This document shows, one piece after another, positions 1-7,575 of a stretch of 16,740 nucleotides of DNA; the stretch's first letter is position 1; the number at the start of each line of letters is the position of its first letter. Origin of the DNA: Escherichia coli (GTDB taxonomy: Bacteria > Pseudomonadota > Gammaproteobacteria > Enterobacterales > Enterobacteriaceae); assembly GCF_003334385.1 (NCBI RefSeq), contig NZ_QOWN01000063.1; one strand, given 5' to 3'. The notes under the pieces are model-generated. The model had not been told where the DNA came from and made no database searches. It worked only from the letters and a program-made list of their open reading frames with translations. Made by a program: the position numbers and the translations under genes.

Positions 1-63
1 GTTACCAAAGCTGTTCATATCCGGTACCTGATTTTCTCCTGTCCCCACATTCCTCTTTGCCGC

Positions 64-89
64 TTCTCCCAAACCAACCTTTTAGAAAA
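64..89. promoter_or_regulatory. Candidate hix/gix-like invertase crossover half-site upstream of pin
   Basis: TTCTCCCAAACC-AA-CCTTTTAGAAAA lies about 55 bp upstream of the invertase start codon. The left half and AA core resemble recalled hix/gix crossover sites (hixL about TTCTTGAAAACC AA GGTTTTTGATAA). The right half is not a good inverted copy, so this is tentative. Confidence 0.2.
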
Positions 90-143
90 TGCAGTTATTC
101 GGCTCAGATGGCATGATCCCGGATTTTTACAGGGTTATTTCTC

Positions 144-698
144 ATGCTTATTGGCTATGTACGTGTGTCAACAAATGACCAGAACACAGATCTACAACGT
201 AATGCGCTGAACTGTGCAGGATGCGAGCTGATTTTTGAAGACAAGATAAGCGGTACAAAGTCCGAAAGGCCGGGACTGAAAAAACTGCTCAGGACATTAT
301 CGGCAGGTGACACTCTGGTTGTCTGGAAACTGGATCGGCTGGGGCGCAGTATGCGGCATCTGGTCATTCTGGTTGAGGAGTTGCGCGAACGTGGCGTTAA
401 TTTTCGCAGCCTGACGGATGCTATTGATACCAGTACCCCAATGGGGCGCTTTTTCTTTCATGTGATGGGGGCCCTGGCTGAAATGGAACGAGAACTGATT
501 GTTGAACGAACAAAAGCTGGACTGGAAGCTGCTCGCGCACAGGGACGAATTGGTGGACGTCGTCCCAAACTTACACCAGAACAATGGGCGCAGGCCGGAC
601 GATTAATTGCAGCAGGAATTCCTCGCCAGAAGGTGGCGATCATCTATGATGTTGGTGTATCGACACTGTATAAGAAGTTTCCGGCCGGAGATAAATGA
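144..698 (+). CDS. pin: Serine recombinase, Pin/Gin/Hin/Cin-family DNA invertase (184 aa)
   Basis: ATG at 144. N-terminal catalytic motif MLIGYVRVSTNDQ with the nucleophilic Ser, a resolvase/invertase core (DTLVVWKLDRLGRS) and a C-terminal HTH (VAIIYDVGVSTLYKK). Length and sequence are closely similar to PinE/Gin as recalled. Confidence 0.9.
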   Translation: MLIGYVRVSTNDQNTDLQRNALNCAGCELIFEDKISGTKSERPGLKKLLRTLSAGDTLVVWKLDRLGRSMRHLVILVEELRERGVNFRSLTDAIDTSTPMGRFFFHVMGALAEMERELIVERTKAGLEAARAQGRIGGRRPKLTPEQWAQAGRLIAAGIPRQKVAIIYDVGVSTLYKKFPAGDK

Positions 699-700
699 AA

Positions 701-742
701 CCGTAGCACGTCGTATGCAAGATCGTGCTGCGGTTTATGCTT
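701..742. terminator. Hairpin between convergent pin and GIY-YIG genes (putative bidirectional rho-independent terminator)
   Basis: 10-bp stem CCGTAGCACG (701-710) pairing with CGTGCTGCGG (724-733), including one G-U pair, around a 13-nt loop. It is followed by TTTATGCTT on the + strand and by a T-rich run (complement of 690-700) on the - strand. Confidence 0.45.
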
Positions 743-755
743 ACCACTTGAAGAT

Positions 756-1625
<870 letters not shown>

Positions 1626-1709
1626 CTAACCCTTTGAATTTACATAGCGCAAAAAGATACCTTTCCTCATAATGTGAGCTAATTTTATGTTTCGTTTGAT
1701 GATCGGGTC

Positions 1710-1770
1710 GGTCTCGAAAACCGGAGTAGGGGCAACTCTACCGGGGGTTCAAATCCCCCTCTCTCCGCCA
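1710..1770 (+). pseudogene. tRNA-Ser(CGA) 3' fragment (serU-like; anticodon arm, long variable arm, T-arm, acceptor 3' strand and CCA), att-remnant-like
   Basis: GGTCTCGAAAACCGGAGTAGGGGCAACTCTACCGGGGGTTCAAATCCCCCTCTCTCCGCCA matches the 3' two-thirds of a class II tRNA-Ser with anticodon CGA. No 5' acceptor strand (GGAGAGA) is present upstream, so it is a fragment, not a gene. Confidence 0.6.
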
Positions 1771-2352
1771 CTTTATCAATGACTTATCTCCTGACTTCCC
1801 GCCTTGCTTTTCCTAAACAGAACAATCGTAGAATATTCTTGAAGGGTTAGATCGTCACTGTTTTCTGTTCGATACTGTGACATTCAGCACTTGATTCGCT
1901 ATGGATCTGACAGGAAGGTTTTGAGCGAAAATCTGCAGTTATTCAGTCGTTTTCTTATCGGTCACCATTATTCTTTTAGACATTGATCCTACAAAGCTGC
2001 CGCAAAGTTGGTGGTGGGAACTGAAGTTGCGTAGAGAAGGGGTCAATACCCGGAGGCAAACATGGGCTGGCAAAAGTGTAGCGGCATTAGGCGCAGCTAT
2101 TTAGCCTAGTTATGTTTTATGAAAACTTGATATCATATAAGTGTCTTACTTATTGGCTGTAAATAAGTTTTTCCTAAGGAATTGTTTCTTGAGTATCATT
2201 TGTAACTGTAACGGAATTTATAATCCTTTGCTTTATTGTTACGGTATTTTTTATCACACCCTATTTTTAGTGGTTTTTTATACTGAAGTTTGGCAAAGTG
2301 AACTTTATATACATATACTTCATCCTGGTTTCAGTTAAATTGGGTGGATGAT

Positions 2353-3096
2353 ATGGCAACTACATGTTCAGTTATATTGATTTTGGAGTCCTTTGATGTT
2401 TATTTCGGAAAAGAGAGTGTGTTTCTGGAGAGAGGTTCATCTGTACTTGTCGACTCTAGCTCTAGAGATTTTTTCCTGACATATCCTGAAAGAGTGATAG
2501 TGGCGGATTTTGGCGCTGAGTTTATTAGTCGCTATTTGAAAGCTAATAACTTAAGGGATATTTCTGATTGTAGGGAATATCCATCTTATTTAAAAATAAA
2601 CTTTGCTGACTTCAGTTTAATTAAAGGATTAATTAGTTGGGCTAATCACTGTGCTGAATACATAGAAATTTTTGATGAGTCTATTGCTTTTACATGTCTC
2701 TCTGCATTTTCTTCTGAAAAACAATTTGGAGTATTTCTGTTTGGATGTTTGAAAAGCACAGGGGCTAAAGTTAAAACGATTATTCATACGGATTTATCTG
2801 CACCATGGCGTCTTAAGGATATATCATCAAGATTATATCTCAGCGAAAGTTTACTAAAGAGGAAATTGAAAGAAGAGGGGGTATCATTCAGTAAGATCAT
2901 ACTTGATGAGAGGATGCAAATGGCTGAATATTTACTCAGCACTCGTTGTTATCCTATTAGTAAAGTAGCTAAGGTCTGTGGTTATGCCAGTGTCTCATAC
3001 TTTACTTATGTATTTAGACGTTATTTTGGTGTTTCTCCAAGTCAATACTCTCAGAGGAGTTCAGAAAGTAAAATTCTTACTCACCAGGGAATCTGA
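2353..3096 (+). CDS. AraC/XylS-family transcriptional regulator (Rns/AggR/ToxT-like size, about 247 aa) in AT-rich DNA
   Basis: C-terminal double HTH typical of AraC family (WRLKDISSRLYLSESLLKRKLKEEGVSFSKI...VAKVCGYASVSYFTYVFRRYFGVSPSQY). Strongly AT-rich codon usage unlike the flanking core genes. The ORF track starts at GTG 2344; the first ATG is at 2353 with a GGGTGG purine tract upstream. Confidence 0.75.
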   Translation: MATTCSVILILESFDVYFGKESVFLERGSSVLVDSSSRDFFLTYPERVIVADFGAEFISRYLKANNLRDISDCREYPSYLKINFADFSLIKGLISWANHCAEYIEIFDESIAFTCLSAFSSEKQFGVFLFGCLKSTGAKVKTIIHTDLSAPWRLKDISSRLYLSESLLKRKLKEEGVSFSKIILDERMQMAEYLLSTRCYPISKVAKVCGYASVSYFTYVFRRYFGVSPSQYSQRSSESKILTHQGI

Positions 3097-3100
3097 TCAT

Positions 3101-3600
3101 TGTTCTTGCCCCCTTATTTCCAGACAGGGGGTGTATCTTAAGTTAACGTTACCCGCTGACGTCGATATTCTCGCGGAGAGCGATAACCCAACGCACTGTG
3201 CGGATGGTGTTCATTGTAATGTTCGATCGCCACTGCAAGATTATGCAATGCCGTTCTTACATTCGGTTTCGGCATGAACGCGATGTAGTCTTCCTTCATC
3301 GTTTTCACGAACCTTTCTGCAATTCCATTACTCTGAGGACTGCTGATTGCCGTTGTGCAGGGCTCCAGATTCAACTCTCTGGCGAACTGCCGTGTTTCAT
3401 GCGCTCTATACGCTGAACCGTTATCTGTCAGCCACTGGATGGACTGTTCCGGTACTTTATCGCCGAAGCGTTTTTCTATCGCTCCTAACATGACATCCTG
3501 CACTGTCGCTTTATCGTAACCTCCCGTGCTTGCGGCCCAGTCTATGGCTTCACGATCGCAACAGTCCAGGGCGATTCATCTGGGCCAATCCTCGCTCATA
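3101..3600 (-). mobile_element. Truncated IS3-family (IS2-group) insertion sequence remnant
   Basis: Terminal sequence TGTTCTTGCCCCCTTATTTCCAGACAGG at 3101-3128 resembles the IS2 inverted-repeat end (TGGATTTGCCCCTATATTTCCAGACATC as recalled). It is followed by the C-terminal part of an IS2 InsD-like transposase. The inner boundary is uncertain and no second terminal repeat was identified. Confidence 0.65.
3138..3575 (-). pseudogene. IS2 InsD-like (IS3 family OrfB) transposase, C-terminal fragment only
   Basis: Translation ...[31 protein letters not shown]...[51 protein letters not shown]...[18 protein letters not shown] has the DDE-core C-terminal signature of IS2-type transposases. The frame is closed by a stop at 3576-3578; the N-terminal half and the OrfA gene are absent. 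Confidence 0.7.
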
Positions 3601-3850
3601 ACAGGCATTCACTTCAGTCATGGCAGAAAGGTATGCATGCTGGAGAAGTCGTGAAAGAAAAGAAGACTGCTGCGCCGTTTGTCGTCACGTTTATCTTCAT
3701 TGGCTATGCAAGTCGTAATACAAGGTGGGACAAAACTGAGACACATAAGGCCTCGCAATGGCTTGCAAGGCTTTACATGTTTTGATGTGGTGGGACGTGT
3801 GAGCGCAGTGTTGATGGGGTAATGCTTTGAATTAGAAGCGGATTCTTATA

Positions 3851-3895
3851 ATTCGTAATGCGAAGGTCGTAGGTTCGACTCCTATTATCGCACCA
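3851..3895 (+). pseudogene. ptwF: tRNA-Thr(CGU) 3' fragment (thrW-like; corresponds to the ptwF pseudo-tRNA of K-12), island right-end att remnant
   Basis: ATTCGTAATGCGAAGGTCGTAGGTTCGACTCCTATTATCG-CACCA matches tRNA-Thr from the anticodon loop (CGT) to CCA with one G missing near the 3' end. No 5' half is present. It lies immediately before the core yagP-pao genes. Confidence 0.7.
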
Positions 3896-4021
3896 TTAAA
3901 ATCAAAGAGTTACCCCATATTTAAATACACCACGTTTCCTCCTGTGCCGTATTTGTGCCATTGTAACCTTGGCAATTCATCAAAATACTGTTCTGACATC
4001 AGGCAGTGCAGGTGCAGACAT

Positions 4022-4432
4022 TTAAGCCAATTGCTGCCGCCATTCTTTGACGTAGTCAATCAGGGCGCGGAGCTTTGGTGCAATATTGCGACGCTGTGGG
4101 AAATACAGATAGAAGCCCGGAAATTGTGGAAGAAAGTCATCAAGCAGCGATACAAGCTTACCGCTTTCAATATATGGCCTGAAAGTTTCCTGAGTGGCAA
4201 TTGTTATTCCTCCGCCGGCAAGAGCCAGCCTCAACATCAGACGCAGATCATTAGTCGTAATCTGCGGTTCAATCGCAAGGTCGAAAGTTCTCCCGTTTTC
4301 TTCAAATGGCCAGCGATAAGGCGCAACCTCCGGGGACTGACGCCAGCCGATACACTTATGGGTATTTCCCCCGGAGGCGAGAAAGCGCTCTCCACGCCCG
4401 GCCGCAAGGATCAGGACGACGGGGGCAGGCAT
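4022..4432 (-). pseudogene. yagP: LysR-family regulator remnant, C-terminal effector-binding portion only (136 aa)
   Basis: Translation from the internal ATG at 4432 gives 136 aa with a LysR C-terminal domain signature (...GGGITIATQETFRPYIESGKLVSLLDDFLPQFPGFYLYFPQRRNIAPKLRALIDYV). No HTH domain is present. Its 5' end overlaps the paoD stop region (4411-4432). Position and length match K-12 yagP. Confidence 0.6.
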
Positions 4433-5367
4433 GAATCCTCCTCCTGATGGAGACGTACAGAGGCGACTTCTGCCAGCACGGAGAGTGCCAGAGTATGCGC
4501 ATCCCGGGCTTTGGGGAATATCCCGACGGGTGCCCGGATTTGCGTTGTTTCCTCCCTGGACCATCCCAGCTCGTGGAGCTTTTGCAGACGTAACGTGTGG
4601 GTTCGATAGCTGCCCAATGCGCCGAGATAAAAGGGTTTTGCTTCTCGCGCGGCCTGCAACACTGGCAGCTCCCGGTTGAGATCATGGCACAGCAAAATGA
4701 CCGCCGTATCGGTATCGATCTGAGCGCTGGCTGAGGCCGGAAAAAGATCGAAGATATGGCTGTCATAGCCTGTGGCTGCTGCAAGACTCGCGGTTGCCTG
4801 CGCCTCAAGAGAACGTCCGTAAATCATCAGCCTGACGCATGGCCTGAACCCCACCTCAAAGCCATTGAGATTCCAGCCCGTCCGGGTTTGCGTGGGCAGG
4901 CACACCAGCGATTGTGCTTGCGGATCGTAGCGCAGCCCCACCGGTTTTCTCTGTTCCAGGCGGTTCAGCACGGCGAGCAGAGGCTGTGCCGAGCGTAGTT
5001 TATGGAGCGTCAGCGTGATCCCACCGCCGCAGGGCAGAACGATGTCAAACCACGGCGAACCTTCGCCATAGCGAATTTCGCGATCGCGGCCTGAGCCCAT
5101 CATCTCCAGCGCTTCAAAAGCGGCAGCGGCCTCCACGCAGCCGCCAGAGACAAAACCGCAGTAACGACCATCTTCGCGCACCACCATCTGCGCCCCGAGC
5201 GGGCGCGCCGCGCCGCCGCGTATCTCCACCAGCGTCACCAGCACCGCTCCTTTACCGGACATTAGCGCCTCTACGGCGAAGCGCAGAATGGTCCGGTGGT
5301 CATCGGTGAGAAACGCCTGCTCTGGCTTATGCCAGTGTTCGTCTTTGTCAAAAAGCGGGTATGACAT
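4411..5367 (-). CDS. paoD: Molybdenum cofactor insertion chaperone, XdhC family (318 aa)
   Basis: ATG at 5365-5367 with a GGAGGA Shine-Dalgarno sequence 4-9 nt upstream. 318 aa, last gene after paoC. Length and position match K-12 PaoD (YagQ). Confidence 0.9.
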   Translation of the reverse strand: MSYPLFDKDEHWHKPEQAFLTDDHRTILRFAVEALMSGKGAVLVTLVEIRGGAARPLGAQMVVREDGRYCGFVSGGCVEAAAAFEALEMMGSGRDREIRYGEGSPWFDIVLPCGGGITLTLHKLRSAQPLLAVLNRLEQRKPVGLRYDPQAQSLVCLPTQTRTGWNLNGFEVGFRPCVRLMIYGRSLEAQATASLAAATGYDSHIFDLFPASASAQIDTDTAVILLCHDLNRELPVLQAAREAKPFYLGALGSYRTHTLRLQKLHELGWSREETTQIRAPVGIFPKARDAHTLALSVLAEVASVRLHQEEDSCLPPSS

Positions 5368-5376
5368 TGTTCCTCC

Positions 5377-7575
5377 TTAAACCACATCCGGCAGCTTATC
5401 GAGCAGCTTATCCAGAGTGATGGGATAATCCCGTACCCGAATACCGGTGGCGTTATACACCGCGTTGGCGATAGCCGCGCTCACGCCGCACAGGCCCAGC
5501 TCACCGACACCTTTGGCCTTCATCGGGGAGGATATGGGGTCGGTATCATCCAGGAAAATCACCTCCTGTTTTGGGATATCCGCATGAACCGGCACCTCAT
5601 ACCCCGCCATATCGTGATTAACGAAGTAGCCCAAACGGTCATCCACCGCCAGCTCCTCCATCAGTGCCGCGCCCATGCCCATAGTCATTGCGCCAATGAC
5701 CTGGCTGCGCGCAGTTTTCGGATTCAGGATGCGTCCTGCAGCACACACAGCGAGCATACGCCGGACCCGAACTTCTCCCGTCGCGCTATGCACGCCGACC
5801 TCCACAAAATGCCCGGCAAAGGTCGACTGCTGGTACTCTTTGCTCAGTGTTCCGAATTCAATGCTCTCTTCCGCTGTCAGTCTGCCGCCTGCGGTGGCTT
5901 CATGTAGCGTGGCGCTTCGGGTACCGTTGGTAATCTTGCCGTCGGCAAACTGCGACTGCTCAGGATCAAACCCGACTGCCGAGGCAATCATTTCGCGAAG
6001 CTTCATACAGGCGGCGTAAACGCCGGAGGTGGAGGTATTCGCGCCCCATTGTCCACCAGAACCCGCAGAAACCGGGAAACTGGAATCGCCGAGGTGAACC
6101 GCAACCTGCTCCAGCGGTACGCCAAGCATTTCCGCTGCCGTCTGGGCCAGAATGGTGTAGCTGCCGGTGCCAATGTCGGTCATGTCCGTTTCTACGGTAA
6201 CGGTGCCGTTTTGTTCGAGGTGAACCCGAGCACCCGATTTTTCCAGCAGATTATTGCGAAAGCCCGCCGCAACACCGTGGCCGACTAGCCACTCCCCGTC
6301 GCGCACCTGTCCGGGTGTGGCGTTGCGCTGCTTCCAGCCAAATTTATCCGCTCCGGTGCGCAAGCACTCGATAAGCTGACGGCGAGAGAAGCAGCGCGTC
6401 GGGTCGGCGGGGTCAACCTGAGTGTCATTCAGGATGCGAAACTCGACGGGATCGATGCCCGCTTTTTCCGCCAGTTCGTCGATCGCGATTTCGAGCGCCA
6501 TCAGACCGGGGGCTTCGCCGGGCGCACGCATGGCGTTCCCTTCCGGCAAATCAAGCGTGGCGAGCCGCAGGCCGGTATGACGATTCGCCCCGGCGTAGAG
6601 TAATTCGCTTTGCTGTACCGCCGTTTCCGGCGTGCCGCCGGGCAGGTTTCCAGACCAGCTTTCATGTGAGATAGCGGTGATTTTCCCGCTCTGGTCGGCA
6701 CCGATACGCAAGTGCTGAAGGGTGGCGGGGCGGTGCGTGGTGTTATTGGGAATAGAGGGGCGGGGGAGCATCACTTTAACCGGACGTTTCACCGCTCGGG
6801 CGGCGAGGGCCGCCAGCAGCGCATCGCTTCTCAGGAACAGCTTGCCGCCAAACCCTCCGCCGATATACGGGGAGATAATACGCACATTCTCCACGGGAAC
6901 TTTCAGCGTTTTTGCCAGATCGGTGCGGCACCAGTCAATCATCTGATTTGAGGTCCAGAGGGTAAGCTTATTTCCATCCCAGACGGCCATCGAGGCATGC
7001 GGCTCCATCGCCATATGGCTCTGGTCCGGGGTCGTGTAGGTAGCATCAATCTTCACCGCAGCGGAGGTGAAAGCCCCGTCAAAGTCACCGACGTTTTTGT
7101 CGGGCGTGTCTTCCGGCGGCTGATTGACGGCCTGTTTTTCGTCCGCCAGGGAGTAAGCTCCTTTATTACGGCGATAGTGTGCCTGCACCAGCGAGGCCGC
7201 CGCTCGCGCCTGTTCGAAGGTCTCGGCCACTACCAGCGCAATGGCCTGATGATAGTGCTCAATAGTGGGGCCGCCTAACAGCCTGGCGGTGTTTTTGTCG
7301 CCTTTGCCGAGTGCCCCGGCGTTACTGGCGGTAATGACAGCCAGTACGCCCGGCGCTTTTTGCGCGGCGTCCGTATCAAGGGCGGTGAGGCGTCCTTTGG
7401 CAATGGCGGAACCGACGATATAGCCATAGGCGGCGTTGGGGGCTTCTTCATGCCATTCGTAGGCGTAGCGTGCCGTGCCGGTAGTTTTCAGCGGTCCGTC
7501 GATGCGGTCATGGGGACGACCGACAACCTTCAGCTGATCGATCGGGTTTTCCCCTGCGGGTTTATCAAATTTCAT
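5377..7575 (-). CDS. paoC: Aldehyde oxidoreductase molybdopterin-binding large subunit (732 aa)
   Basis: 732-aa xanthine dehydrogenase-family molybdenum subunit ([21 protein letters not shown]...; GGGFGGK motif). Start ATG overlaps the paoB stop as ATGA at 7572-7575. Confidence 0.95.

Follow-up and report, generated by a model that had tools for sequence, protein, structure and literature searches.

An ISEc48-like remnant beside an AraC-family gene in a thrW prophage of Escherichia coli: probable relic of a single old insertion, cut by recombination

How did a piece of an insertion sequence come to lie between an AraC-family regulator gene and a tRNA fragment at the end of an E. coli prophage, and did this element, by deleting what lay around it, reshape the way in which the prophage is integrated? 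The window analysed here is a stretch of 16,740 nt (contig NZ_QOWN01000063.1 of assembly GCF_003334385.1, to whose whole length all positions refer) that takes in, of a thrW-integrated prophage, only the last 4 kb at the distal end. An earlier note, made from the letters alone, had read this region as an IS2-group element inserted behind the regulator gene, truncated on its other side, and responsible for deleting the island's interior, possibly together with an integrase expected beside the thrW attachment site. We propose instead, with a probability of roughly 70%, that the stub is the relic of a single old ISEc48-like insertion, that its truncation is a recombination joint and not a deletion made by the transposase, and that the integration module has been left untouched.

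The prophage part of the window carries a Pin-type invertase gene (144-698) and, on the minus strand, a gene for a GIY-YIG protein (756-1580), and to the right of the thrW 3' fragment lie a yagP remnant and then paoDCBA. The GIY-YIG reading frame has 274 aa (PGAP calls a 257-aa "LEM-3-like GIY-YIG domain" protein), gave zero NCBIfam matches, and accompanies the Pin invertase in all thrW prophages examined, whatever the cargo downstream. Just upstream of the invertase gene, 85 bp (16-100) match another locus (L007) in inverted orientation at 84.7%, as would be expected for the crossover site of an invertible tail-fibre segment. At gathering thresholds, Rfam gave nothing over the window besides IS009 (RF02111), which matches the plus strand at 10219-10415 with 182.5 bits, above its gathering score.

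The identity of the remnant was established against an intact ISEc48 on plasmid pP136-4 (L004, 2505-3840), which is 1336 bp long and has TG...CA ends and imperfect terminal inverted repeats. Window 3101-3574 (minus strand) is 96.6% identical to it over 474 bp, that is, to the right-hand 36% of the element. Since the remnant is only 70% identical in nucleotides and 68% in amino acids to IS2 proper (K-12 IS2A / InsD), the element is ISEc48-like, a member of the IS3 family that is IS2-like without being IS2, which refines the group first assigned. The note had suggested that an alignment with IS2 and related IS3-family elements would reveal where the element is cut, and such an alignment does place the cut at 3574, with ISEc48 and not IS2 as the best reference. 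The terminus TGTTCTTGCCCCC at 3101 aligns with the right terminus of the intact ISEc48, and the right inverted repeat occupies about 3101-3146, so an IS end does lie beside the stop codon of the regulator gene. That stop (TGA, 3094-3096) is separated from the IS terminus by 4 nt (TCAT, 3097-3100); the adjacency is therefore as first described, and the distance of 5 bp was off by one at most. Similarly, the span of 3097-3600 first given to the element is correct for 3101-3574, and 3575-3600 is not IS. The second end is missing, again as reported: a search of the window for the left inverted repeat that allowed as many as 3 mismatches gave 0 matches, and nothing further of ISEc48 aligns anywhere in the 16.7 kb. 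The intact ISEc48 used as reference is itself bracketed by a 15-bp direct repeat, ATTAAACTCCACATC (L004, 2490-2504 and 3841-3855), far longer than the target duplications of the IS3 family, which usually measure 3-5 bp.

What remains of the transposase is the last 145 codons of orfB (3138-3575, minus strand), which match positions 149-289 of the 301 of the NCBIfam IS2 TnpB profile (E=2.6e-68) and are closed upstream by a TGA, the reverse complement of tca at 3576-3578; both the survival of the C-terminal part alone and the position at which its frame is closed had been recognised correctly. Gone from the remnant are orfA and the site of the programmed -1 frameshift that joins orfA and orfB in the IS3 family. 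The motifs LTDNGS and NGIAERF are retained (translations inspected by eye), and the WCSDGFEF motif, which we take from IS3 transposases to carry the first catalytic D, lies upstream of the cut, so that the DDE triad would be incomplete, its first D being lost. Sixteen codons differ from ISEc48, 10 of them synonymously, and these differences look like divergence between IS lineages and not like decay. With a single end, neither orfA nor the frameshift site, and an orfB stub from which the first D of the triad is missing, the remnant is an inert relic, incapable of transposition and with no plausible activity of its own. As an IS feature it is ordinary and already known, being annotated as a partial transposase in hundreds of RefSeq genomes; the RefSeq name for it is "integrase core domain-containing protein, partial".

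More informative than the stub itself is its junction with the gene that precedes it. The AraC-family gene (2344-3096, plus strand) opens with a GTG at 2344 (PGAP starts at an ATG at 2353, for a product of 247 aa), and its product is 28% identical to AppY of DLP12. The segment is AT-rich, with 27-39% GC against 45-53% in the IS stub, and the GC content steps at 2100 and 3100; a consensus scan gave no convincing plus-strand terminator 3' of the stop codon. Of 5426 complete E. coli genomes searched, 658 contain the gene's 3' half (654 at >=80% coverage), and a 200-bp probe across the AraC-IS junction matches 656, all at >=99% identity. No copy of the gene without the IS end was seen among the genomes probed for the junction (656 junction against 658 gene matches), and the 5426 genomes contain no empty insertion site. 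As the junction is invariant, all known copies of the regulator descend from one ancestral arrangement, of which the AraC-IS stub is a scar in about 12% of complete E. coli genomes; that the stub became fixed is most easily understood from its linkage to the regulator. Shorter versions of the stub also exist: one is cut at 3351 (A3019, L018), and in A3019 it is joined to a variant arm at thrW, and one is cut at 3165 (H122). Such outer-side erosion, in A3019 and H122, is consistent with neutral decay whose limits are set by the need to retain the regulator gene on one flank and the att arm on the other.

What lies on the other side of the cut? From 3575 to 3850 (plus strand) runs a block that is conserved in thrW prophages with any cargo. 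In the thrW prophage of FDAARGOS_1277 (L003), which has neither the AraC gene nor the IS and carries a lipase gene in the same slot, window 3589-5000 is matched at 98.4%, and the roughly 260 bp that precede the thrW fragment are common to it and to two other prophages, with flxA (L015) and FRG (L016) cargo. Over window 3726-3900 there is 97.7% identity to the intergenic region between gtrA and int of SfIV, which is the attP of that phage. Because the block recurs in these three prophages and matches the SfIV attP region, 3575-3850 can be identified as the phage arm nearest the att core, the P arm of an attP that is SfIV-like and specific for thrW, and the stub ends just outside this arm. Parts of the arm (3592-3808) recur at other att sites, in phage 21 and e14-like elements (icd), at 87.6%, and an 82-bp part is shared with the right end of DLP12 at 97.6%. 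An E-value Rfam scan of 1600-4000 matched no family to the att arm and gave partial-tRNA-type matches only, all of them on a serU fragment farther left, with a partial match to the tRNA model at 1689-1759.

The tRNA-Thr fragment noticed earlier is real and corresponds to the 3' part of thrW (3851-3895, plus strand), the attR core. It has 45 nt, one G short of the 46-nt thrW 3' part, in a comparison made by eye with what we take to be the thrW sequence; 28 nt of its core are identical to part of the tRNA-Thr(CGU) that ARAGORN finds in L008, and homology with K-12 (99.6-99.8%) starts at 3851, the end of CP4-6. We thus have what an attR should consist of, a tRNA 3' core preceded by a phage P arm. 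The missing G lies at 3890-3895, where the window reads ATCGCACCA instead of ATCGGCACCA; L016 reads the same, and L003, L015 and L018 are without the deletion. A 20-nt inverted repeat (85% complementary), with one copy in the P arm (3814-3833) and one in chromosomal DNA (3899-3918), brackets the thrW core. ARAGORN, run on the window and five loci, reported no tRNA at the fragments, which are partial genes.

As to the integrase, strain TW10722, 99.8% identical across window 3050-3950, has a prophage of 38.5 kb that extends from the thrW fragment to a complete tRNA-Thr(CGU), in which the other copy of the core lies, and its integrase is immediately beside that complete tRNA, at the far end. Since this prophage is full-length and has its integrase next to the intact thrW, the integrase that the earlier note expected beside the fragment would belong at the other end of the prophage, and from near-identical genomes we infer that this end is intact in the window's prophage as well. 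Nor does any of the IS-free relatives L003, L015 and L016 have an integrase between the cargo gene and the thrW fragment. The comparison with related thrW prophages, which the note had itself proposed as a check, therefore gives nothing to indicate that an integrase was deleted between the AraC gene and the P arm.

The inner side of the stub, rightly described as truncated, is a rearrangement joint between the IS interior and phage DNA at 3572-3574, where the triplet CGA is shared by the IS and the phage side of L003: the window reads ...GGGCGA then TTCATCTGG, ISEc48 reads ...GGGCGA then ACGTAAC, and L003 at the corresponding place reads ...TTTTCGA then TTCAAAACG. The CGA is a possible 3-bp microhomology, seen with one comparator, L015 and L016 differing there. 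The position of the joint is telling in another respect. Deletions that a transposase makes next to its element keep the IS end whole where the two sides meet, and since this joint is internal to the IS, the ISEc48-like element did not make it.

The stub turns out to be the right edge of a larger unit, a mosaic cassette of 1.87 kb (1708-3574) made up, in order, of a serU 3' fragment, the serU-yodB spacer, an IS630 end, the AraC gene and the ISEc48-like stub. At its left edge are the 3' 62 nt of serU tRNA-Ser(CGA), from the anticodon stem to CCA (1708-1769, plus strand), recognised by alignment with K-12 serU and with the attR of XDL, a strain with a lambdoid prophage integrated in serU; this fragment appears to be the fossil attR of a serU-integrating phage. 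It is followed by 279 bp (1770-2048, plus strand) that genome matches identify as the core-chromosome intergenic spacer between serU and yodB. Window 1709-2048 is 97.1% identical to the K-12 serU locus, and the serU-yodB segment matches the serU locus in 5423 of the 5426 genomes at 96-98%. Serine tRNA fragment and spacer are thus enclosed in a prophage of thrW, at a distance of 2 kb from its att fragment there. Then comes a 56-bp remnant of the right end of IS630 (2049-2104, plus strand), truncated on its outer side and with its terminus facing the AraC gene, which was recognised by alignment to the corresponding end of a complete IS630 carried by pINV and has the inverted repeat GCGCAGCTATTTAG. 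The AraC gene is consequently bracketed by two inward-facing IS termini, of IS630 and of the ISEc48-like element, both cut on the outside. That IS630 had inserted into the serU-yodB spacer was considered and rejected: the spacer abuts the interior of IS630, and past the IS630 end the spacer does not resume.

The limits of the cassette follow from two independent comparisons that agree. The thrW prophage L003 shares window 696-1723 and everything from 3589 onward, with nothing between, and prophages at the lambda att site beside ybhB-bio (L006, L011, L012), together with L005, share window 1708-3574 and nothing outside it (some of these carriers share the cassette only from 2149, where an IS1 intervenes). 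Three phages, PhiR70_1, ev099 and mEp332, have a segment with precisely the limits of window 1708-3574, about 99% identical to it; in ev099 (L022) the cassette occupies part of the b region, where it is preceded by the tail-fibre assembly gene and followed by the lambda core GCTTTTTTATACTAA, int and xis. On the left of the serU fragment, the lambda-type carriers have 195 bp that are 97% identical to the phage side of the XDL attR. There is thus, inside a phage genome, a hybrid att junction with a contiguous chromosomal flank, and the cassette has the look of host DNA that a prophage in serU picked up. Among the genomes examined, the AraC gene was not met with between serU and yodB at their native place in the chromosome, whether with an intact IS or with an empty site. 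A scan of species representatives for the AraC protein gave one 1.5-kb Collinsella MAG contig, which is probably contamination, and no native context.

The lambda-type carriers also have a different joint at the right edge of the cassette. The window-type joint (stub, phage arm, thrW fragment) is found in 322 genomes and the lambda-type joint in 184. In the latter the stub measures 491 bp, 17 bp longer than in the window (...GGGCGA ACGTAACACGCAGTTTT), and runs up against the left end of a different member of the IS3 family (TGAATCGCCACGGG..., orfA MSGKRYPEEFK), a fragment of which leads directly into the final 84 bp of an intS-like gene. As the lambda-type stub carries more of the IS, the lambda type cannot derive from the window type. 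The space between the stub and the lambda attP is thus filled with a series of further remnants. In ev099 (6386-6905), about 219 bp of the other IS3-family element are present, which has a relative near yagB in K-12; in L005 (5495-5787) the intS-like gene is full length but frameshifted, and the XDL serU integrase showed no blastn similarity to the IntS-like integrase of L005.

Because 656 of the 658 genomes share the AraC-IS junction, and because lambda-type phages carry nearly the same stub, the insertion and the truncation would both be older than the thrW locus in which we now find them. The history that we favour, the order of events being deduced from structure only, would run as follows. 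An ISEc48-like element would have inserted once, 4 nt downstream of a prophage AraC gene. Host DNA beside a lambdoid prophage integrated in serU would then have been captured, by imprecise excision or by an equivalent recombination, and the resulting cassette would have entered a thrW phage of the SfV/SfIV kind by recombination, at its cargo slot, a cassette of the lambda type being, on the simplest reading, the donor. The left crossover would have occurred in a stretch of roughly 30 nt, similar to serU, in the recipient thrW phage, and the right crossover would be an illegitimate joint inside the pre-existing IS stub, just outside the P arm of attP.

The stretch in question is present in cassette-free SfV-like prophages: L003 (3617-3641) and L015 (about 1310-1340) have about 30 nt that resemble the D and anticodon arm of serU (e.g. 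CGGACCGGTCTCAAAAACCGCAG), placed exactly where the serU fragment starts in the window (1697-1727) and followed by a hairpin GCACGTT...AACGTGC. It could be a pseudo-att site or a recombination scar, and it may have served the exchange either as a short region of homology or as a secondary site at which a serU integrase could act. The idea that it belongs to a phage tRNA was abandoned, as ARAGORN finds none in L003 or L015 and only about 30 nt resemble serU. The direction of the exchange at the left joint could also be the reverse, if the cassette-free phages descend from an ancestor that carried the cassette. The stronger proposal, that the stub is the edge of a fossil of specialised transduction, in which a gene regulating virulence and acid resistance, the serU attR and 279 bp of host DNA were captured by a lambdoid prophage and then moved between unrelated temperate phages, we offer only tentatively and consider doubtful. 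Were it true, a left joint at a look-alike of serU would suggest cargo exchange mediated by an integrase at a pseudo-att site, and not random illegitimate recombination.

How do the other explanations fare? The one proposed at the outset, in which the IS inserted in the thrW island and then mediated a deletion of its interior, possibly with the integrase, was a reasonable one: the IS is indeed truncated, its second end is missing, and in CP4-6 of K-12 intF does lie beside the thrW fragment. We nevertheless regard it as very improbable and as already largely refuted, given that the joint lies inside the IS and not at its end, that the same stub is found at other loci and in free phages, that the right flank is a conserved attP arm which in IS-free relatives is contiguous with the cargo and has no integrase, and that nothing is missing from the prophage of TW10722, whose integrase adjoins the intact thrW at the opposite end. 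A scenario in which the thrW and the lambda-type lineages each lost the inner part of a longer or complete IS on their own can point to the fact that neither joint has a traceable donor and that stubs of differing lengths exist. It would, however, require two cuts to fall 17 bp apart within the 862 bp lost, which we estimate at roughly 4% if cuts were uniformly distributed, and no AraC copy followed by more than 491 bp of IS is found in the 5426 genomes; here too we see hardly any chance of its being correct.

A rival that we take more seriously, while still thinking it unlikely, divides the right joint into two steps: a longer, lambda-type piece, with the 491-bp stub, the second IS fragment and more, would have entered the thrW slot, and a later spontaneous deletion would have taken 17 bp off the stub together with all that lay between it and the P arm. 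Erosion of the stub does recur at thrW (the cut at 3351 with a variant arm in A3019), and H122 is cut at 3165. Against this, the expected intermediate, a thrW prophage with the 491-bp stub and the second IS, was not seen in what was an unsystematic look. On present data a joint made in two steps and one made in a single step cannot be told apart.

Three known systems help to place the cassette. Bio- and gal-type transducing phages of lambda, and morons, resemble it in that a hybrid attR (phage arm, tRNA 3' part, chromosomal DNA) is found in viable phages, near attP, and in the textbook mechanism of imprecise excision the captured DNA does end up next to attP. The carriers described here differ, however, in keeping int, xis and their own lambda attP, and in having captured an att that is that of serU and not their own; since the captured att differs from that of the carriers, at least one further recombination between phages is needed. 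The gtrABC locus of SfIV and SfV occupies the same cargo slot beside the thrW attP arm (in SfIV: gtrA, attP, int), but in the window the cargo is a regulator amid IS debris and not a set of glucosyltransferases. The end of CP4-6 in K-12, finally, lies at the same site, where the yagP remnant and paoD come next to the 3' fragment of thrW; it differs in that intF adjoins the fragment, whereas the prophage family of the window has its integrase at the opposite end.

There is one locus at which what is probably this regulator has been described. In O157:H7 the same order of genes (pinE, GIY-YIG, AraC, IS stub, thrW fragment) is present in single copy and is 99.1% identical over window 63-3896, and the locus would correspond to that of patE in CP-933H, or OI-8, of EDL933. 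Given the literature and the identity with this single-copy locus, the AraC gene is probably patE (z0321) of O157:H7; the names of its cluster members and those in databases say only "AraC family", with no PatE label. PatE has been described as a prophage-encoded AraC-like activator of acid resistance located in O-island 8 / CP-933H, dependent on RpoS and repressing the genes of the LEE (PMC10877973, PMC2907692). The passages of these two papers that deal with the gene, the island and the prophage name mention neither an IS stub nor a serU fossil (PMC10877973, PMC2907692).

What does the remnant mean, then, for the biology of these phages and of their host? As an IS remnant it matters little, being dead and not having reshaped the integration module of the prophage. 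Its junction with the AraC gene is of more use, as a marker present in 656 of 5426 genomes, including O157:H7, that stands for one ancestral arrangement. And the serU attR and the host spacer preserved in the cassette document how what is probably a regulator of acid resistance and of the LEE became phage cargo and spread between lineages.
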